A stretch of 64,000 bases of DNA from Eubacteriales bacterium (GTDB lineage Bacteria; Bacillota; Clostridia; Oscillospirales; Oscillospiraceae). The notes beneath the pieces were generated by a model that saw nothing but the letters and a program-made list of their open reading frames with translations, searched no databases and had not been told where the DNA came from. A program made the translations under genes and the position numbers. How positions within the stretch are numbered: the stretch's first letter is position 1; every line of letters begins with the position of its first letter. Shown here one piece after another: positions 54,175 to 63,732 of this stretch. The stretch spans positions 78,282 through 142,281 of the forward strand of contig JAUNPV010000003.1 of assembly GCA_030536515.1 (NCBI GenBank), read 5' to 3'.

Positions 54175-55497
54175 ATGGCGTTTTCTTTTTTCGGCGGGGT
54201 CCATCCCAAAGAAAATAAGTGGTACGCTTGCGACAAGGAAACTGCGGTATTCCCGGAGCCTGACATCGTGGTGATTCCCATGTCCCAGCATATCGGCGCC
54301 CCCTGCAAGCCGTTGGTGAAAAAGGGCGATCTTGTGACCGTTGGCCAGAAGATCGGCGACAATCAGGGCCTTTGCGTTCCGGTCCACGCTTCCGTGTCCG
54401 GTAAGGTCAAGGCCGTGGAGTCCCGGCCCCACACCAGCGGCACCAATGTTTTGAGCGTGGTCATTGAAAATGACCACCAGCATACCCTGTGCGAGGATGT
54501 AAAGCCCCGTTCTCAGGAGGATGTGGAAAAGCTGACCAACGACGAGCTGATCGGCATCATCCGGGAGGGCGGCATCGTGGGCATGGGCGGCGCAACCTTC
54601 CCCACCCACGTCAAGCTCTCCGGCGGCGTGGGCAAGGTGGACACCGTCATTGTCAATGCCGGCGAGTGCGAGCCCTACATAACCTCCGACGACCGGCTGT
54701 GCCGGGAGCAGCCGGAGAAGCTGATTGCCGGACTGAAGATTATCATGCGCATCTTCGGCCTGAAGGAGGGCCACATCGGCATCGAGGACAACAAGCCCGA
54801 GGCCATCGCCGCCCTGCAAAGGGCCTCCCAGGGGGACGACAGCATCATCCTGGATGTGCTGCCTGCCAAGTACCCCCAGGGCGCTGAAAAGCAACTGATT
54901 TACGCCGTCACCGGCCGGGAGGTCCCCTCCGGCGGCCTGCCTGCCGCCGTTGGCTGCGCCGTGTTCAATGCGGCCACCTGCAAGGCCATTCACGACGTGG
55001 TCTACGACGGCCTGCCCCTGATTCACCGGATTGTCACCGTTTCCGGCGACATCATCATGGAGCCGAAAAACCTGCTGGTGCCCATCGGCACCTCCTTTAA
55101 CGCCCTGCTGGAGGCCTGCGGCCACTCCGAGAACCCCTACAAGGTCCTCTCCGGCGGCCCCATGATGGGCGTGGCCCAGTACGACCTCAGCGTGCCCACC
55201 ATCAAGGGTGTCAACGCCGTCACCGTTCTGGGCAGGCGCAACGACTACGCCGTGGCCGCCCCCCACTGCCTGCGCTGCGGCAAGTGCATCGACGTGTGTC
55301 CCATGAAGCTGATGCCCGTGATGATGTACAAGGCCTTCCAGAGCCAGGATGTGGAGGACATGAAGGCCAACAACATCATGGACTGCATCGAGTGCGGCAG
55401 CTGTGCTTACAACTGTCCCGCCAGCGTGCCGCTGGTGCTGGGCTTCCGGGTGGCCAAGCAGGTCATCCGCAATGCCAGCGCCAAGGCGAAGAAATAA
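54175..55497 (+). CDS. rnfC: Rnf complex subunit C
   Basis: GGVHP, GIVGMGGATFPTH, NAGECEPY, YPQGAEK, two CxxCxxCxxxCP. Confidence 0.96.
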   Translation: MAFSFFGGVHPKENKWYACDKETAVFPEPDIVVIPMSQHIGAPCKPLVKKGDLVTVGQKIGDNQGLCVPVHASVSGKVKAVESRPHTSGTNVLSVVIENDHQHTLCEDVKPRSQEDVEKLTNDELIGIIREGGIVGMGGATFPTHVKLSGGVGKVDTVIVNAGECEPYITSDDRLCREQPEKLIAGLKIIMRIFGLKEGHIGIEDNKPEAIAALQRASQGDDSIILDVLPAKYPQGAEKQLIYAVTGREVPSGGLPAAVGCAVFNAATCKAIHDVVYDGLPLIHRIVTVSGDIIMEPKNLLVPIGTSFNALLEACGHSENPYKVLSGGPMMGVAQYDLSVPTIKGVNAVTVLGRRNDYAVAAPHCLRCGKCIDVCPMKLMPVMMYKAFQSQDVEDMKANNIMDCIECGSCAYNCPASVPLVLGFRVAKQVIRNASAKAKK

Positions 55498-55511
55498 GGA
55501 GGTGGAGCGAT

Positions 55512-56510
55512 ATGGCACAGATGAAATATTTTTATGAGCTGACCATTTCCAGCTCTCCCCACGCCCATTCCAGCGTGACGACTCAGACCATCATGCGGGA
55601 TGTGCTCATTGCCCTGACCCCGGCCCTGATTGGCTCAATTTACTTCTTTGGCTTCCGGGCGCTGCTGGTGACCCTGGTGTCCGCCGCCGCCTGCGTGTTT
55701 TTCGAGTGGGGCTACTGCCGCCTGATGAAGAAGCCTGTGATGGTTTACGACCTGTCCGCCGTGGTTACCGGCGTGCTGCTGGCCTTTGTCTGCCCGGTCA
55801 CCATTCCCTACTGGACCATTATCCTGGGGGACCTGTTCGCCATTGTGCTGGTCAAGCAGCTTTTCGGCGGCCTGGGCCAGAACTTTGTCAACCCCGCCCT
55901 GGCGGGCCGGGCCTTTATGTTCAGCTGGCCCGTGCTGATGAACACCTGGGTGAAGGTGGGCTATGAGAACGCCGCCGGGCTTCTGTCCTCCGCCGACGCC
56001 GTCACCGCCGCCACCCCCATGGCCGCCATGCACCAGGGCGTGATGCCCGAGGCCGGTGTTATGGACCTGCTGCTGGGCAGCGTGGGCGGCTCTCTGGGCG
56101 AGACCTCCGCACTGCTGCTGCTCATCGGCTTTGCCTATCTTCTGTACCGGCAGGTCATTACCGCCCGGATTCCCCTGGCCTTCATCGGCACCGTGGCGGT
56201 GCTGACCTTCCTGTTCCCCCAGGGCAATCCCCGCATCGACTGGATGCTCTGCCAGGTCCTGGGCGGCGGCCTCATGCTGGGCGCTGTTTTCATGGCCACC
56301 GACTACGTCACCTCCCCCGTCACCAAGCTGGGCCAGATTGTCTTTGGCGTGGGCTGCGGTGTCATTACGGTGCTCATCCGCTACTTCGGCGGCTACAGCG
56401 AGGGCGTGTCCTACGCCATTTTGGTGATGAATGCCTGTGTGGTGCTGCTGGATAAGCTGGGCCGTCCTGTGAAGTTCGGCGCACCGAAAAAGGAGGCGGC
56501 TAAGAAATGA
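55512..56510 (+). CDS. rnfD: Rnf complex subunit D
   Basis: SSSPH, GGLGQNFVNPAL, TAATP (FMN-Thr), ATDYVTSP; start at ATG 55512. Confidence 0.95.
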   Translation: MAQMKYFYELTISSSPHAHSSVTTQTIMRDVLIALTPALIGSIYFFGFRALLVTLVSAAACVFFEWGYCRLMKKPVMVYDLSAVVTGVLLAFVCPVTIPYWTIILGDLFAIVLVKQLFGGLGQNFVNPALAGRAFMFSWPVLMNTWVKVGYENAAGLLSSADAVTAATPMAAMHQGVMPEAGVMDLLLGSVGGSLGETSALLLLIGFAYLLYRQVITARIPLAFIGTVAVLTFLFPQGNPRIDWMLCQVLGGGLMLGAVFMATDYVTSPVTKLGQIVFGVGCGVITVLIRYFGGYSEGVSYAILVMNACVVLLDKLGRPVKFGAPKKEAAKK

Positions 56511-57058
56511 AAACGGAATCCACTGTGAAATTTGTGCTCCGGCTGGCTCTGACCCTGTTCGCCATCACCGCTGTGGTGGCCGGGTGCCTGGCCGGTGTCA
56601 ACGCCATTACAGAGCCCAGAATTGCGGCGCTGAATGAAGAAAAGACCCAGGCCGCCATCGAGGCGGTGCTCCCCGGCGGCGGCACGCTGGCCGGAACCTG
56701 GAGTGATTCCACGGGCTTTGTGTCCAAGGTCTACGAGTCCGACACCGGCTACGCCGTGGAGGTCAAGCCCAACGGCTTTGACAACACCATCACCATGATG
56801 GTGGGCGTGGACAAGGCTGGCAAGGTCCTGGGCATTTCCGTCATCTCCCACACCGAGACTGCGGGCTTGGGCGCGACCTGCGCCGCCAAGACCGCCGCAG
56901 GCGAGGCCTTCCGGGACCAGTTTGCGGGCATGAGCGGCCAGGTGGCCGTCACCAAGGACGGAGGCAGCGTGGATGCCATCACCGGCGCCACCATTACCTC
57001 CCGGGCCGTCTGCGCAGGCGTCAATGCGGCTCTGGAATGCGTCGCCAACATGGGCTAA
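56507..57058 (+). CDS. rnfG: Rnf complex subunit G
   Basis: ETAGLG, DAITGATITS (FMN-Thr). Confidence 0.93.
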   Translation: MKTESTVKFVLRLALTLFAITAVVAGCLAGVNAITEPRIAALNEEKTQAAIEAVLPGGGTLAGTWSDSTGFVSKVYESDTGYAVEVKPNGFDNTITMMVGVDKAGKVLGISVISHTETAGLGATCAAKTAAGEAFRDQFAGMSGQVAVTKDGGSVDAITGATITSRAVCAGVNAALECVANMG

Positions 57059-57071
57059 GGAGGTGCTCTGA

Positions 57072-57716
57072 ATGAATTTTAAGAAACAGTTCAAGGAGGG
57101 CCTGCTGACCAAGAACCCGGTCACCGTCCAGCTGCTGGGTATGTGCTCTACCCTGGCCATTACCACCAGCCTGTTCAACGGCATCGGCATGGGCCTGTCG
57201 GTCCTGGTGATTCTCACCTGCTCCAATATCCTCATTTCCGCTCTGCGCAAGGTCATTCCCAACCAAATCCGGATCGCCGCCTACATTGTCATCATTGCAG
57301 GCTTCGTCACCATTGTGGATTTGCTGCTGAAGGCCTTTATCCCCGCCCTGTCGGAAAACCTGGGCGTGTTCATCCCCCTGATTGTGGTCAACTGCATCGT
57401 CCTGGGCCGGGCCGAGGCCTTTGCCTCCAAGAATACGGTCCTGGCCTCCGCCGTGGACGGCATTACCCAGGGCATCGGCTACACCGTGGCTCTGGTGATT
57501 ATGTGCGTCATCCGGGAGCTGCTGGGCTCCGGCACCTTCGGCGGCGGGCTCTTAAACGGCGGCGAGGGCATCCGCATCATCCCTGCCCAGTTCCCCGCCA
57601 TGCAGATGGTCATGCCTGTGGGCGGTTTCCTGGTGCTGGGCTGCGTTATCGCCGGGTCCCAGTGGCTGATGAAGCATCTGGAAAAAACAAGTAAGAAGAA
57701 GGAGGCTGTGAAATAA
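57072..57716 (+). CDS. rnfE: Rnf complex subunit E
   Basis: NPV..QLLGMCSTLA, FIPLIVVNCIVLGRAEAFA. Confidence 0.95.
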   Translation: MNFKKQFKEGLLTKNPVTVQLLGMCSTLAITTSLFNGIGMGLSVLVILTCSNILISALRKVIPNQIRIAAYIVIIAGFVTIVDLLLKAFIPALSENLGVFIPLIVVNCIVLGRAEAFASKNTVLASAVDGITQGIGYTVALVIMCVIRELLGSGTFGGGLLNGGEGIRIIPAQFPAMQMVMPVGGFLVLGCVIAGSQWLMKHLEKTSKKKEAVK

Positions 57717-58294
57717 TGGAAGCGATTTTCGGAATTATTCTCAGCGCCATTCTCAGCCAGAACTTCATTCTGGTGAAATTCTACGGCATCTGTCCCTTCA
57801 TGGGCGTGTCCAAGAAGATTGACACCGCCCTGGGCATGGGCATGGCCGTCACCTTCGTCATGGCCCTGGCCTCCGCCGCCTGCTATGCAGTGAATCTGCT
57901 GCTGGTGGCCCTGGATTTGGCCTACTTGCAGACCGTCACCTTCATTCTGGTGATTGCCGCCATCGTCCAGGTGGTGGAGATGTTCCTGAAAAAGAGCGTC
58001 CCCGCCCTTTACAAGGCTCTGGGCGTGTTCCTGCCCCTGATTACCACCAACTGCGCCGTGCTGGGCGTGGTGCTGGTGAACGTGCAGAACGGCTACAACT
58101 TCCTGCTGAGCGTGATTAACGGCGCCGCCGGCGGCCTGGGCTTCACCCTGGCCATCGTCCTGTTCGCCTCCGTCCGGGAGCGGGTGAACCGCTCTGAGTG
58201 CCCCGAGTGCTTCAAGGGCTTCCCCATTGCCCTGATCACCGCCGGCCTGCTGGCCCTGGGCTTCATGGGCTTCTCCGGCCTGAAAATTTTCTAA
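57716..58294 (+). CDS. rnfA: Rnf complex subunit A
   Basis: FYGICPFMGVS, FLPLITTNCAVLG. Confidence 0.95.
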   Translation: MEAIFGIILSAILSQNFILVKFYGICPFMGVSKKIDTALGMGMAVTFVMALASAACYAVNLLLVALDLAYLQTVTFILVIAAIVQVVEMFLKKSVPALYKALGVFLPLITTNCAVLGVVLVNVQNGYNFLLSVINGAAGGLGFTLAIVLFASVRERVNRSECPECFKGFPIALITAGLLALGFMGFSGLKIF

Positions 58295-58310
58295 AGGGGA
58301 GGAAGTAGTT

Positions 58311-59180
58311 ATGGATATTATCATTGCAATTGCCATTCTGGGCGGCCTGGCCCTGATTTTCGGCCTGGTGCTGGCCGCCGCATCCAAGGTCTTCTATGTG
58401 GAGACCGACCCCCGGCTGGACCAGCTCAACGAGTGCCTCCCCGGCGCCAACTGCGGCGGCTGCGGCTATGCCGGCTGCTCCGCCTATGCCGAGGCCGTGT
58501 TCAACGGCGAGGCGGAAATCGGCAAGTGCGCCTCCGGCGGCAACGCCTGCGCCCAGGCCATGGCGGCCATTATGGGCGTGAAGGCGGAAACCGTCACCCG
58601 GCGGGTGGCCATGGTCCGCTGCTCCGGCGAGAAGATTTTCGACAAGGACGGCAGCCAGATTAAGGGCGCCAAGGTCAAGGGCAACTACCAGGGCTTCCAC
58701 GACTGCCTGGCCGCCTCCAAGGTGGGCGGCAACGGCCCCCTGTCCTGCAAGTACGGCTGCCTGGGCTTCGGCACCTGCACCAAGGTGTGCAAGTACGGGG
58801 CCATCAAGGTGGTCAACGGCGTGGCCAAGGTGGACGAGAGCCTGTGCGTGGGCTGCATGGCCTGCGCCAACGTGTGCCCCCGTCACCTGATTGTGCCGGT
58901 GGAGCCTGACCGGAACGTGGTCATCGCCTGCGCCTCCCTGGCCAAGGGCGCTGTTACCACCCGGGGCTGCACCGTGGGCTGCATCGGCTGCGGCCTGTGC
59001 AAGAAGGTCTGCCCCGAGGGAGCCATCACCGTGGAAAACAACCTGGCGGTCATCGACTACACCAAGTGCACCAACTGCGGCAAATGCGCCACCGTCTGCC
59101 CCAAGCACCTGATTCAGGATTCCAACGTGGAAAACCTGGGCGAGCCCATCGCCCAGCCCCTGAACGGACCCAGCGTATAA
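58311..59180 (+). CDS. rnfB: Rnf complex subunit B (polyferredoxin)
   Basis: LPGANCGGCGYAGC and multiple CxxCxxCxxxCP motifs. Confidence 0.95.
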   Translation: MDIIIAIAILGGLALIFGLVLAAASKVFYVETDPRLDQLNECLPGANCGGCGYAGCSAYAEAVFNGEAEIGKCASGGNACAQAMAAIMGVKAETVTRRVAMVRCSGEKIFDKDGSQIKGAKVKGNYQGFHDCLAASKVGGNGPLSCKYGCLGFGTCTKVCKYGAIKVVNGVAKVDESLCVGCMACANVCPRHLIVPVEPDRNVVIACASLAKGAVTTRGCTVGCIGCGLCKKVCPEGAITVENNLAVIDYTKCTNCGKCATVCPKHLIQDSNVENLGEPIAQPLNGPSV

Positions 59181-59189
59181 TCCTTTTGG

Positions 59190-59222
59190 AGAGGACCTGC
59201 CAGGGGCAGGTCCTCTTTTTTT
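59190..59222 (+). terminator. rnf operon terminator
   Basis: AGAGGACCTGCC-AG-GGGCAGGTCCTCT followed by a T run. Confidence 0.85.
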
Positions 59223-59435
59223 ATGCTCCGCTGTGGAAAAATTCCTTACCCTATGGTATAATACTATTTCTTAATAAAAATCTTTAAGAAGATTTTTATT
59301 AGCCAGCCTGGCGGCTGGGGGGCTTTCCGCCGGAATCAGAAAAACAAGTTTTTCTGATTCCCACGCAACGCCCCAAAGAAATGTATTGACTTCATTTTTA
59401 ATCGCCTGCGGCGATTAGGCGGCTAAAAGCCGCCC

Positions 59436-59459
59436 AATAAAACGATAAATCGTTTTATT
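59436..59459. promoter_or_regulatory. Perfect 11-bp-arm palindrome just upstream of a TATAAT (59469-59474)
   Basis: AATAAAACGAT-AA-ATCGTTTTATT. Confidence 0.55.
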
Positions 59460-59508
59460 AAAAATTCGTATAATGACAGAAAAATTCTGAAAGGGGGCGC
59501 TGTCTGGG

Positions 59509-62025
59509 ATGAAAAGCAGCCTGATTCTGGGCATTTTGGCCCATGTGGATGCCGGGAAGACCACGCTTTCTGAGGCGCTGCTGTATGTCGGCGGGGCGCG
59601 GCGGACGCTGGGGCGGGTGGACCATGGGGATGCCTGCCTGGACACTCACCAGCTGGAACGGGCCCGGGGCATTACCATTTTCTCCAAGCAGGCGAGGCTG
59701 GAGACCGCCACCCGGGAGATTACCCTGGTGGACACCCCGGGTCATGTGGATTTTTCCGCCGAGGCCGAGCGGACCCTGGGGGTGCTGGACTGCGCCGTGC
59801 TGGTCATCAGCGGCACCGATTCCGTCCAGGCCCACACCCTGACCCTCTGGCGGCTGCTGGAGCGATACCGGGTGCCCACCTTCCTGTTCGTCAGCAAAAT
59901 GGACCTGGCCGGGGCGGACCGGGGGCGGGTCCTGGGGGATTTGCAGCGGCAGCTGAGCCCGGGCTGTGTGGATTTTTCGGCCAGTCCGGAGGAAATTGCC
60001 GAAAACGCCGCCCTGCTGGACGAGGCGTTGCTGGAAAACTATCTGGAAACCGGCACGGTCACCCCCGGCAACCTCCGGGGGCTGATTGCCCGGCGGCGGC
60101 TGTTTCCCTGCTGCTTTGGCTCGGGGCTGCGGCTGGACGGGGTGGCGGATTTTCTCGCCGTGCTGGACCGGTTCGCCCCGGAACAGACCTATGGGGAGGC
60201 CTTCGCCGCCCGGGTGTATAAAATCTCCCGGGACCCCCAGGGCAGCCGCCTGACCTGGCTGAAGGTCACCGGCGGCAGCCTGAAGGTCCGGTCTGCAATT
60301 TGTTATGTAAACCCAAAGGGGGAGCAAAAGGAGGAGAAGGCCCTTCAGCTGCGGCTGTACACCGCCGACAAATTCACCGCCCCCGAGGAGATTTTCGCCG
60401 GTCAGACCGCCGCCGTCACCGGCCTTTCCGAGACCTTCGCCGGCCAGGCCCTGGGGGCGGAGCCGAACCCTCTGGCCCCGGCGCTGGAGCCGGTGATGAC
60501 CTACCGGGTGAACCTGCCCCAGGGGGCGGACCCGGCCACCGTCATGCCAAAGCTGCGGCAGCTGGAAGAGGAGGACCCCCAGCTCCACCTGCTCTGGGAA
60601 AACGGCCAGATTCACGTGCAGATGATGGGCAAGGTCCAGCTGGAAATTTTCCGCTCTCTGGTTTCCCAGCGGTTCGGCCTGGATATCCAGCTGGACGACC
60701 GGCGGATTTTCTACAAGGAGACCATTTTGGACACCGTGGAGGGCGTGGGCCACTTTGAGCCTCTGCGCCACTATGCCGAGTGCCACCTGCTTTTGGAGCC
60801 CCTGCCCCGGGGCCGGGGGATGGAATTTGCCACGGTCTGCCCCACGGACGTGCTGGATGCGGGGTATCAGCGGCTGATTCTGACCCATCTGGAGGAAAAG
60901 GTCCACCGTGGGGTCCTCACCGGGGCCCCCATCACCGACATGAAAATCACATTGCTGGTGGGCAAGGCCCATTTGAAGCACACCGAGGGCGGCGACTTCC
61001 GCCAGGCCACCTACCGGGCGGTCCGCCAGGGGCTGATGCAGGCAAAATCCCAGCTTTTGGAGCCCTGGTACGACTTTGCCCTGACCCTGCCGACGGAGCA
61101 GGTGGGCCGGGCCATCACCGACATCCGGACCATGGGCGGCGAATTTGACCCGCCGGAGACCCAGGGGGGCCTCTCCACCCTGAGAGGCCAGGTCCCCGCC
61201 GCCGAGGTCCGGGACTATGCCGACACCGTGGCCGCCTACACCCAGGGCCGAGGGCGGCTCCAGCTGAGCCTCCACGGCTACGCCCCCTGCCACAACCAGC
61301 AGGCGGTGGTGGAGGCCCTGGGCTACGACCCCTGCGCCGACCTTGACAACACCCCGGACTCGGTGTTCTGCGCCCACGGGGCGGGCTTCACCGTGAAGTG
61401 GGACCGGGTGAAGGAGTATATGCACCTGGAAAGCGGCCTGAAGCAGGCCCGGCCGCCCCAGCTGCTCTCCCGGAACCTGGCCCTGGACGAGAAGGAGCTG
61501 GAAAAAATCATGGAGCGGGAGTTCGGCCCCGTGAAAACCATCCTCTACCGGCCTGTCACCCAGCCCGCCACCGAGGAGGTGACCATCCGGCCGCCCAAGG
61601 ACCGCTACATCATCGTGGACGGCTACAACATCATCTTCGCCTGGGAGGACTTGGCCCGGACCGCAAAAAGCGACCTGGATGCCGCCCGGCGGCAGCTGTG
61701 CGACGCTCTGGCGAGCTACGCTGGCTTCACCAAAACCCGGCTGGTGGTGGTATTTGACGGCTACAAACAGAAGGGAAATCCCGGCGAAAAGTCCCGTTTT
61801 CACAACATTCAGGTGGTGTACACCAGAGAGGGCGAGACCGCCGATGCCTACATCGAGGCCCTGGCGGACACCATCGGCCCCAGCTTTGCGGTGCGGGTGG
61901 CCACCTCCGACGCGCTGGTCCAGCTGTCCTCCTTCCGAAGCGGCGTGCTCAGAATGTCCGCCCGGGAGCTGCGGGAGGACGTGGACCGGGCCAGGGAGGA
62001 AATGAAAGAACATTTTTTGAAATAA
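59509..62025 (+). CDS. EF-G/Tet-like translational GTPase fused to a C-terminal YacP/Rae1-type NYN domain
   Basis: AHVDAGKT, RGITI, DTPGH, SKMD; GHFEPLRHYAE; C-terminal IVDGYN..VVFDG..ETADAYIE..VATSD. Confidence 0.88.
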   Translation: MKSSLILGILAHVDAGKTTLSEALLYVGGARRTLGRVDHGDACLDTHQLERARGITIFSKQARLETATREITLVDTPGHVDFSAEAERTLGVLDCAVLVISGTDSVQAHTLTLWRLLERYRVPTFLFVSKMDLAGADRGRVLGDLQRQLSPGCVDFSASPEEIAENAALLDEALLENYLETGTVTPGNLRGLIARRRLFPCCFGSGLRLDGVADFLAVLDRFAPEQTYGEAFAARVYKISRDPQGSRLTWLKVTGGSLKVRSAICYVNPKGEQKEEKALQLRLYTADKFTAPEEIFAGQTAAVTGLSETFAGQALGAEPNPLAPALEPVMTYRVNLPQGADPATVMPKLRQLEEEDPQLHLLWENGQIHVQMMGKVQLEIFRSLVSQRFGLDIQLDDRRIFYKETILDTVEGVGHFEPLRHYAECHLLLEPLPRGRGMEFATVCPTDVLDAGYQRLILTHLEEKVHRGVLTGAPITDMKITLLVGKAHLKHTEGGDFRQATYRAVRQGLMQAKSQLLEPWYDFALTLPTEQVGRAITDIRTMGGEFDPPETQGGLSTLRGQVPAAEVRDYADTVAAYTQGRGRLQLSLHGYAPCHNQQAVVEALGYDPCADLDNTPDSVFCAHGAGFTVKWDRVKEYMHLESGLKQARPPQLLSRNLALDEKELEKIMEREFGPVKTILYRPVTQPATEEVTIRPPKDRYIIVDGYNIIFAWEDLARTAKSDLDAARRQLCDALASYAGFTKTRLVVVFDGYKQKGNPGEKSRFHNIQVVYTREGETADAYIEALADTIGPSFAVRVATSDALVQLSSFRSGVLRMSARELREDVDRAREEMKEHFLK

Positions 62026-62178
62026 TTCTTCCCTTTTCTGCCCCAATCCGTTACAATAGTAGGGAACGGATTCATCCGTTCCGCCGGAACGGCCATCCGG
62101 TTTTCCCGCAGACGGCGGCCTGAGGGCAGGCCGCCCCGCAGGATGTCGATAAAATTACGTAAAAACAGGAGGTATCCC

Positions 62179-62631
62179 ATGAGCGTACCATATCAGCCAG
62201 ACCCCAAGCTGGAGCAGCGGGAGGCCAAGCAGGCCCGGCAGGACCGCTGGACCGACCACTTTTTCCGCCGCACCCTGCACATCATCGAGCGCTTCATCGC
62301 CCTGCTGACCATTCTGGCATTGCTGGCGGCCCTGTGCCTGGAGGTTGTCAGCATGGTCACCGAGCCGGGGTACTTCTCCGATGTCAGCCATGTGCTGCAC
62401 AATCTGCTGGGCATTGTGGTGGGCCTGGAATTTGTCCGGATGCTCATCGACACCACCCCTGCCAACATTTTGGAGGTCCTCACCGTGGCCATCACCCGCC
62501 ACGTGATTCTCAGCCACGACGACCCCCTAAGCAACATCGCCTCCATCGCCTGCATCGCCGGCCTGTTCGCCATCCGCCGCTTCCTGGTCCGCCGCAGCGA
62601 GCTGCAGGAGGAAATGGTGGAGGTGGAGTAG
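62179..62631 (+). CDS. PsiE-like small membrane protein
   Basis: GGAGG RBS; TMs with LEFVRML ... AITRHVI pattern. Confidence 0.6.
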   Translation: MSVPYQPDPKLEQREAKQARQDRWTDHFFRRTLHIIERFIALLTILALLAALCLEVVSMVTEPGYFSDVSHVLHNLLGIVVGLEFVRMLIDTTPANILEVLTVAITRHVILSHDDPLSNIASIACIAGLFAIRRFLVRRSELQEEMVEVE

Positions 62632-62703: not shown

Positions 62704-63732
62704 TCATCCCAGGCAGCCGCCGCAGGGCTTGTAGCCTGCTTCGACTGCCTCCTCGTAGGTGCCGAAGGTGACCTGGTTTTTTTCGGCGGGGAGGCTGGCG
62801 CAGTCCGGGGCGTGGAAGACCTTGGAGTTTTTGTTGCCGATGTAGACCGTGGGGGCGGCGGGCTCGGCGTTGTCCGGGTTGGCGCTCTGGTCGTCCCAGG
62901 TGAAGCTGACCTCCCGGCCGTCAGACCGGGCCACGATGGTGCCCAGCCTGTCGGTCCGCAGAACGGTGACCCCCGCCTGGTTCAGCCGGGACAGGGGCTC
63001 GTCGTGGGGGTGGCCGTAGGTGTTGCCGGTGCCCACGGAGATGACCGCATATTCGGGGTCCACCTCGTAGAGGAAGCGGTAGCCGGTGGAGGAATTGGAG
63101 CCGTGGTGGCCCACCTTCAGCACGTCGGCCCGGACGCTGGCCCCGCTGTCCAGAATGTCGGTCTCCGACTGGGTCTCGGCATCGCCGGTGAACAGGAAGG
63201 CGGTGTCCCCATAGACCGCCCGGAGGACGATGGAGGTGTCGTTGGTCTCGGCATAGGATTTCACCGGCCCCAGTACCGTCAGGGAGGCCTCCCCCAGGGT
63301 CAGCTGGTCGCCGGGGCTGGGAATGGTGATTTCCAGGCCCTGCTGGTCGGTATAGTAGACAAATTTGTCGAAAATGTTGGAGGAATAGGTGCGGGTGGGG
63401 GCGTAGACCCCGGCGGTGGGGTACACCGCCAGCACGGCGGGCAGACCGCCTACGTGGTCCTCGTGGGCGTGGGTGCAGACCAGGGCCTTCAGCTCCCGGA
63501 CCCCCTGCTGCTCCAGGTAGGTCACCACCAGGTCGCTGTCCTCCCGGTTGCCGCCGTCGATGAGCATAAATTCCCCGCCGCATTCCAGCAAAATGGAATC
63601 CGCCTGGCCCACGTCGATGTAGTGAACGGTAAGCCCATCCCCGGAAACCGGCGACGGAGCCGGGGCCTCCAGCCGGCAGCCGGAAAGGGTCAGGGCCAGA
63701 AGCAGAAGAAGGGCAAAGAGTTTCTTTTTCAT
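62704..63732 (-). CDS. ComEC/Rec2-like metallo-beta-lactamase-fold lipoprotein with a C-terminal Ada-like zinc domain
   Basis: Lipobox LSGC; DVGQAD, THAHEDHVGG, TGD, LKVGHHGS; FH..DC...GYKPCGGC. Confidence 0.88.
   Translation of the reverse strand: MKKKLFALLLLLALTLSGCRLEAPAPSPVSGDGLTVHYIDVGQADSILLECGGEFMLIDGGNREDSDLVVTYLEQQGVRELKALVCTHAHEDHVGGLPAVLAVYPTAGVYAPTRTYSSNIFDKFVYYTDQQGLEITIPSPGDQLTLGEASLTVLGPVKSYAETNDTSIVLRAVYGDTAFLFTGDAETQSETDILDSGASVRADVLKVGHHGSNSSTGYRFLYEVDPEYAVISVGTGNTYGHPHDEPLSRLNQAGVTVLRTDRLGTIVARSDGREVSFTWDDQSANPDNAEPAAPTVYIGNKNSKVFHAPDCASLPAEKNQVTFGTYEEAVEAGYKPCGGCLG

Follow-up and report, generated by a model that had tools for sequence, protein, structure and literature searches.

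The closest described relative of the protein reported here is Rae1 (YacP; PF05991) of Bacillus subtilis, a free endoribonuclease of about 170 amino acids (aa). On a stalled ribosome, Rae1 cuts messenger RNA (mRNA) at the tail end instead of in the A site, 12 nucleotides (nt) upstream of the A-site codon (PMC12407103). Cleavage by Rae1 is favoured by ribosome collisions (10.64898/2026.10.09.757949) and feeds trans-translation (PMC13622287). Two further groups of relatives are translational guanosine triphosphatases (GTPases), namely elongation factor EF-G with its paralogue EF-G2, and the tetracycline-resistance factors Tet(M), Tet(O), Tet(S) and Tet(W), which protect the ribosome. We analyzed a window of 64,000 nt from the genome of a Eubacteriales bacterium, meaning by "window" this whole stretch of DNA, in which a single open reading frame (ORF) of 838 aa plus stop codon at 59509-62025 (+) joins a GTPase of this kind to a Rae1-type nuclease domain. 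In its proposed role the fusion protein resembles SmrB of E. coli and Cue2/NONU-1 of eukaryotes, which cut mRNA at stalled or collided ribosomes for rescue (cited in PMC13622287 and 10.64898/2026.10.09.757949); those nucleases, however, have an unrelated fold (the Smr domain), contain no nucleoside triphosphatase (NTPase) module and are not covalently coupled to a translational GTPase.

The architecture is not a new discovery, having been described by Atkinson 2015 (PMC4342817) and Matelska 2017 (PMC5499597); the object is real and is a variant of the Rae1 system. A preliminary description of this DNA, made from the sequence alone, knew of no functional characterization, and our literature search likewise found no experimental study of the fusion; the Rae1 papers of 2025-2026 make no mention of it. 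What is added here is the genome-by-genome substitution for Rae1, an autonomous family of unfused GTPases, congruent trees that point to a single origin, and the family-specific invariant loops, C-terminal extension and conserved tether helix. The reading we favor, at a probability of roughly 0.6, is that the protein is a ribosome-docked equivalent of Rae1 that would cut mRNA on stalled or collided ribosomes and so feed rescue by transfer-messenger RNA (tmRNA).

The GTPase and nuclease domains

Judged from its sequence, the protein begins with 640 residues of translational GTPase, which belong to a distinct Tet/EF-G-like subfamily and have intact GTP-binding and catalytic residues, and it ends with 138 residues of Rae1/YacP NYN endoribonuclease, in which the four catalytic aspartates are all in place. 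The preliminary description had proposed such a combination in one protein, and the ORF, Pfam, AlphaFold2 and Foldseek all bear it out, a domain check with Pfam and AlphaFold having recovered five GTPase domains and the NYN domain. The AlphaFold2 model, built from an alignment of 72 family members, has a mean predicted local distance difference test (pLDDT) score of 85.7. The five GTPase domains, an extension (residues 594-640) and the NYN domain are folded, and pLDDT falls below 50 at residues 647-659 and 675-695, on either side of a helix at 658-672. Foldseek matched the GTPase body to structures of EF-G and EF-G2 (PDB 2BM0, 6N0I) over about 680 columns (E ~1e-53; template modelling score up to 0.75, target-normalised). 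Motifs G1 to G4, the catalytic histidine of DxPGH and domains II to V were recovered by Pfam and Foldseek and place the protein in the EF-G/EF2-like branch of the translational GTPase superfamily. The G-domain motifs are the P-loop AHVDAGKT (residues 11-18), RGIT (53-56), DTPGH (75-79) and SKMD (129-132).

Conservation was followed in 123 fused representatives (clusters at 50% identity) and in a second alignment of 72 proteins from named genomes; the window protein shares 47-74% identity with 71 full-length members that come from named genomes. Residues D14, K17, T56, D75, H79, K130 and D132 of the GTPase and D704, Y706, N707 and D750 of the nuclease are kept in 123/123 representatives, and D779 and D801 in 122/123; the 72-sequence alignment gave the same active-site conservation. 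That G4 reads S129-K-M-D132, as had been observed at the outset, was confirmed, but SKMD is a tolerated lineage variant and not a family trait, since the first position is N in 112 of the representatives, S in 6 and T in 5 (consensus NKMD), and the nearest relative, locus L012, also has NKMD.

The NYN_YacP match scored 148.1 bits against a cutoff of 24.6 and covers profile positions 1-137 of 166; the genome-wide profile search gave 152.6 bits. Residues 701-831 align with residues 4-134 of B. subtilis Rae1 (PDB 5MQ8/5MQ9; E 6e-23). The acidic motifs that the preliminary description had listed as DGYN, FDG, TAD and TSD are indeed kept and fall, as VD704GYN, VVFD750G, ETAD779 and ATSD801, in the same columns as the motifs of Rae1 in the alignment with 5MQ8. 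The DGYN signature, the four catalytic aspartates and the status of sole family member in the genome are thus shared with Rae1. Unlike free Rae1, the NYN domain forms the C-terminal fifth of the protein, behind the GTPase and a helix-bearing tether, and the window copy is without the last ~30 residues of the C-terminal helices: the two Rae1 helices with conserved basic residues (profile positions ~138-166) were not found in it. The length of the tail past S817 is bimodal in the family, at about 20 or 40-50 residues; the window protein has the short form (22 residues), and the longer tail is retained in about half of the fused proteins.

The GTPase has the five-domain body and short G' region of the Tet proteins (NF012153; PDB 3J25, 3J9Y, 4V6V) and is collinear with them over residues 5-594; it aligned in one stretch with TetO/TetM and in two stretches with EF-G. 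In place of a full G' insertion, residues 155-230 occupy the position of EF-G residues 161-307, so that the insertion is about 70 residues shorter than in EF-G. None of the curated NCBIfam cutoffs was passed by the window protein. The best model was tet_protect (NF012153), with 381.7 bits against a cutoff of 775; the cutoffs set for Tet(M), Tet(Q), TetM/W/O/S and Otr(A) were likewise not reached, and the EF-G model TIGR00484 gave 265.6 bits against a cutoff of 659.4. With the plasmid-borne Tet(M), Tet(O), Tet(S), Tet(W) and TetB(P) the protein shares 26-29% identity, as much as it shares with EF-G, and the genome encodes two ordinary EF-G paralogues (EF-G and an EF-G2-like protein) besides the fusion.

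The tip loops of domain IV are family-specific and unlike those of both Tet proteins and EF-G: loop 1 is GVGHFEPLRHYAE (residues 412-424), and loop 3 (487-498) follows the pattern AH.KHTEGGDFR. Within loop 1, G414, H415, E417, P418 and L419 are identical in 151/151 aligned sequences. The TetM loop, which the preliminary description could not recognize, is in the alignment exchanged: 'YYSPVSTPADFR' is replaced by 'AHLKHTEGGDFR'. The C-terminal helix of the Tet proteins was not found either; a different, Cys/His-containing extension stands in its place, with the motif PCHN..YDP..D..NTPDSVFCAHGAG..V.W..V..YMH (also written PCHN..YDP..D..NTPDSVFC.HGAG..V.W..V..YMH), modelled by AlphaFold2 as a small helix-hairpin-helix module. 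Residues Y606, D611, S618, F620, G624 and W631 are near-invariant. Fused and unfused members alike have the extension, which Tet and EF-G lack. An obligatory zinc site in the extension (C594, C621, H623, H639) was considered and rejected, the full quartet being found in only 72/123 fused representatives; such a site would be at most facultative.

In a GTPase tree (a quick IQ-TREE search, LG+G4, rooted on the EF-G of the same genome) the family forms a clade of its own (Shimodaira-Hasegawa-like approximate likelihood ratio test, SH-aLRT, 100), apart from and not within the clade of Tet(M/S/W), although the Tet proteins are its nearest characterized sister group. Of 1,459 plasmid records that gave a match, only one, a 518-kb Monoglobus replicon, carries a member of this family. 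Unlike the Tet genes, the fusion gene is chromosomal, appears to be vertically inherited, lies off mobile elements and carries a nuclease. Tetracycline-resistance labels on such proteins, mentioned in the preliminary description, are real (source names include 'TetM/TetW/TetO/TetS family...'); the evidence above argues that the label is wrong.

The tether between the two halves is 59-125 residues long across the 72 members (median 78; 60 in the window protein), and in the window its charge is mixed (11 K+R, 10 D+E). The helix motif given in Table 1 is present in all members, with E663 kept in 71/72 and I667 in 70/72; it is absent from the unfused proteins, which end a few residues past the extension. 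The helix thus looks like a docking element rather than a simple spacer. With one ORF, a Tet-like GTPase, a C-terminal NYN_YacP domain, the loops GHFEPLRHYAE and KHTEGGDFR, the extension and the tether helix, the window protein has the full set of family features.

Distribution and origin of the fusion

A profile search of the source genome (98% complete) gave one NYN_YacP match, the fused copy. The search was extended to a sample of 300 genomes drawn evenly from the same class; these genomes are mutually related, and the counts describe the sample, with no statistical test. NYN_YacP was found in 198/300 genomes, with more than one match in only four. Among the 150 matches listed, 94 were in frames of at least 600 aa and 55 in frames of less than 260 aa, and no genome had both forms. 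The sample holds about 113 genomes with the fused form and about 85 with the stand-alone form, split largely along family lines. Since NYN_YacP is almost always single, and fused and stand-alone forms do not occur together among the matches listed, the fusion substitutes for Rae1 genome by genome.

A search with the GTPase part found the family as a single copy in 125/300 genomes, fused in about 113 and unfused in 12 (frames of 633-729 aa). Five of these 12 genomes have a stand-alone Rae1 elsewhere, and seven (G016, G032, G045, G064, G094, G135 and G211) gave no NYN_YacP match; the GTPase therefore has a function for which the nuclease is not needed, and the unfused GTPase with its extension is a stand-alone ribosomal factor with a function of its own. 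A split-gene ("Rosetta stone") arrangement of unfused GTPase and Rae1 was also sought, but the two genes were not adjacent and in G149 and G294 lay more than 1 Mb apart.

The fusion is common in gut Clostridia. A pattern scan found it in at least 592 species-representative genomes, and the architecture is common to at least 8,000 clusters at 90% identity. Cultured carriers include Flavonifractor hominis, Intestinimonas butyriciproducens, Faecalibacterium prausnitzii, Anaerovorax odorimutans DSM 5092, Fusibacter sp. 3D3 and Lachnospiraceae bacterium NC2004. Among the matches listed, a metagenome-assembled genome of Faecousia sp. has the nearest relative (74% identity).

In the GTPase tree the fused proteins make up one sub-clade (SH-aLRT 99) nested among unfused forms. 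A tree of NYN domains placed 25/25 fused domains in one clade (SH-aLRT 97), itself nested among the stand-alone Rae1 proteins of the class. Both trees are quick searches with a single outgroup, and their rooting is provisional. Because each gives one fused clade and the two have sub-clades in common (window protein with L012, L014 with L019, L016 with L022, L028 with L040, and L073/L082/L091), the simplest reading would be that a resident rae1 was fused once to a GTPase gene already present, after which the halves co-evolved by vertical descent. Secondary fissions are rare, the candidates being G240, G109 and P0229. Genome G240 has an unfused GTPase and a stand-alone Rae1 (C25:31212-31700 and C26:32120-34096; loci L103 and L009) whose NYN domain (DGYNVIFAW) falls in the fused clade, and it may represent such a fission. 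At G109:C2:126183-128749 the GTPase occupies a frame of 588 aa and the NYN domain an adjacent frame of 351 aa in the same orientation, which probably reflects a copy of the fusion that has been frameshifted or split.

Genomic context

The features of the gene and its surroundings are collected in Table 1. The terminator behind rnfB probably marks the 5' boundary of a transcription unit belonging to the fusion itself. Upstream of the start codon, a block TATAAT...GAAAAATTC...GAAGGGGGCG is common to the window and L012, and the remaining intergenic sequence is not. The PsiE-like gene downstream is 66% identical to the gene at the same position in L012 and is the sole neighbor that the two loci have in common; no terminator-like site was found after 62025, between the fusion and this gene.

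Table 1. Coordinates of the fusion gene, its domains and adjacent features in the window
Feature	Coordinates	Strand	Basis and remarks
Complete rnfCDGEAB operon, directly upstream of the fusion	54175-59180	+	Not kept beside the fusion in relatives
Strong intrinsic terminator of the upstream rnfCDGEAB operon	59188..59218	+	14-bp stem with 8 G-C pairs and T-run, directly past the rnfB stop
Likely -10 element TATAAT of a putative proximal promoter	59469..59474	+	Sequence; conserved in L012
Shine-Dalgarno-like AAGGGGG, 11 nt 5' of the ATG	59491..59497	+	Sequence; conserved in L012
Whole coding sequence, GTPase-tether-NYN fusion	59509..62025	+	ORF and Pfam; AlphaFold2 mean pLDDT 85.7
G domain, residues 4-224, short Tet-type G' region	59518..60180	+	Pfam GTP_EFTU, E 2.6e-46
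Domains II (residues 232-313) and III (residues 327-395)	60202..60693	+	Pfam EF-G_D2 and EFG_III, slightly under cutoffs
Domain IV, residues 400-513	60706..61047	+	Pfam EFG_IV, 9.3e-18
Domain V, residues 515-598	61051..61302	+	Pfam EFG_C, 4.2e-18
Family-specific C-terminal extension, residues 599-640 (motif from C594)	61303..61428	+	pLDDT ~90
Flexible tether, residues 641-700	61429..61608	+	Low AlphaFold2 pLDDT; family alignment
Tether helix, residues 658-673	61480-61527	+	Motif [DE]xEL..I[FM]ER[TE][YF]G
NYN_YacP (Rae1-type) endoribonuclease domain, residues 701-835, then short C-terminal tail	61609..62013	+	Pfam, 3e-43
PsiE-like membrane protein, downstream	62143..62631	+	Pfam PsiE, 23.3 bits, slightly under cutoff
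Lipoprotein-like protein, metallo-beta-lactamase fold and C-terminal Ada-type zinc-binding domain	62704-63732	-	Convergent with the fusion and PsiE-like pair

No mobile-element genes were found among the neighbors in the window. When the neighbors of the fusion at 77 loci were clustered, a MATE-like transporter was present at 11, in scattered positions, and a YlmH-like gene overlapped the stop codon at 2. The source genome has its ylmH on a different contig from the fusion. A role in anti-phage defense was rejected: PADLOC gave only a marginal match to LeoA, a GTPase, and no defense signature. A regulatory leader of about 245 nt with a distal promoter-like site at 59234-59262 was likewise rejected, there being no credible Rfam match and only the proximal block with TATAAT and ribosome-binding site being conserved in L012.

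Between the rnfB terminator and the proximal promoter, four or five short perfect hairpins lie at 59270-59460, with the arms aataaaaatctt/aagatttttatt, atcagaaaaac/gtttttctgat, ggcggct/agccgcc and aataaaacga/tcgttttatt. This cluster is not conserved in the nearest relative and matched no Rfam family.

The genome also encodes SmpB, a MutS2-like Smr protein, RqcH and YlmH, which together are a full Bacillus-type ribosome-rescue kit. The RqcH gene (NFACT_N, E 5.9e-121) lies at G000:C27:26530-27870, on the contig of the fusion and about 50 kb before the start of the window.

Possible action on the ribosome and significance

Delivery of a nuclease to stalled ribosomes by a GTP-driven factor, as the preliminary description put it, is still the best reading of a protein with invariant active sites that is the sole Rae1 homolog of its genome; the mechanism itself we infer from sequence, and its geometric details are much less certain. 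The GTP form of the GTPase would dock at the factor-binding site of the ribosome, where the invariant domain IV loops could sense which state the A site is in. The NYN domain, on a tether that leaves domain V on the mRNA-entry side, could then reach mRNA at the ribosome edge. Action of the nuclease where domain IV sits is unlikely, and the tether matters. The most likely target would be the mRNA between a stalled ribosome and the collided one behind it, where free Rae1 cuts: with the GTPase on the collided (trailing) ribosome, the mRNA outside the entry channel would be the stretch emerging from the tail of the stalled ribosome. Docking of the GTPase on the stalled ribosome would instead put the cut on the 3' side of that ribosome. 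Either docking would leave a truncated mRNA that tmRNA-SmpB could resolve. GTP hydrolysis would time or license cleavage and then release the factor, and the GTPase would provide for recruitment and for a check of ribosome state, which free Rae1 achieves by other means.

The conservation of the tether helix only in fused forms speaks for this proposal, as do the intact active sites, the confidently modelled fold with its disordered tether, the substitution for Rae1 in the class sample, the trees that point to one fusion, the rescue factors encoded in the genome and the established action of Rae1 itself. Several observations weigh against it. The window NYN domain has the shortened C-terminal tail described above; the GTPase is unfused in 12 of the 300 sampled genomes, of which seven lack an NYN domain altogether; no conserved operon partner emerged from the neighbors of the 77 loci; and free Rae1 works without any GTPase, which leaves the benefit of fusion unexplained. 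In addition, AlphaFold2 leaves the relative position of the tethered domains unfixed.

The invariant loops, the C-terminal module peculiar to the family and its unfused occurrence even where Rae1 is absent make it possible, though we hold this only tentatively, that the GTPases are an autonomous family of ribosome-state sensors; in the fusion, GTP hydrolysis would then be the gate that licenses mRNA cleavage on a stalled or collided ribosome, the nuclease being active only while the GTPase is locked there.

It is unlikely that the tethered nuclease is directed at ribosomal RNA (rRNA) or transfer RNA (tRNA), whether in maturation, the idea about YacP current before 2017, or in inactivating or dismantling defective ribosomes. 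A docked GTPase would put rRNA at the factor-binding site and at the 30S shoulder and head within reach of the tethered nuclease, NYN enzymes act on broad RNA substrates, and an rRNA- or tRNA-processing role for YacP has been deduced from operon context (Matelska 2017, PMC5499597). However, B. subtilis Rae1, the only characterized member of PF05991, is translation-dependent in its cleavage of mRNA, and the fused gene has left the cysS-mrnC-yacO context on which the processing idea was based; because the fusion replaces Rae1 genome by genome, a conserved function is the simpler assumption.

A little less probable still is the absence of any mechanistic coupling, an autonomous GTPase and Rae1 having been joined merely for co-expression or for co-localization near ribosomes. 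The occurrence of the GTPase by itself, at times in genomes with no NYN domain, would fit this, as would the activity of free Rae1 in B. subtilis without a GTPase and a tether that, one helix excepted, is disordered and variable in length. Yet the fusion has been retained as one clade across many families with its halves co-evolving and hardly any fissions, about 113 of the 125 family GTPases in the class sample are fused, and the near-invariant helix occurs only in the fused tether.

Very improbable, finally, is the suggestion of Atkinson 2015 (PMC4342817) of a tetracycline ribosomal-protection protein whose nuclease domain adds a twist to resistance: tet_protect is the best curated model, the short G' region and single-stretch alignment are Tet-like, the Tet clade is sister to the family and many databases use the Tet label, but every Tet model failed, tet_protect reaching half its cutoff, identity to Tet proteins is not above that to EF-G, the clades are separate, other sequence stands in place of both the drug-dislodging loop YSPVSTPADFR and the C-terminal helix of Tet, and the gene is single-copy, distributed along family lines and set among housekeeping neighbors, with the one Monoglobus replicon as its only plasmid record.

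The papers of 2025-2026 make Rae1 central to the rescue of collided ribosomes in bacteria. In about 38% of the sampled genomes of the class, Rae1 exists only as part of one polypeptide with a ribosome-docking GTPase. Major genera of the human gut with fused Rae1 include Faecalibacterium, Flavonifractor, Intestinimonas, Ruminococcus, Blautia and Dorea, and surveys that treat Rae1 as one gene family miss this form. Thousands of such genes are annotated as tetracycline-resistance determinants, so that resistome counts in gut metagenomes are inflated. The fusion represents a directly testable mechanism of recruitment and offers a handle for cryo-electron microscopy, as a non-hydrolysable GTP analogue could trap the GTPase on the ribosome. 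If the GTPase is indeed a sensor that licenses cleavage, this would be the first case in bacteria of an mRNA-surveillance nuclease controlled directly by an NTPase, and its natural "trapped" complex would reveal how a Rae1-type nuclease is positioned on ribosomes.

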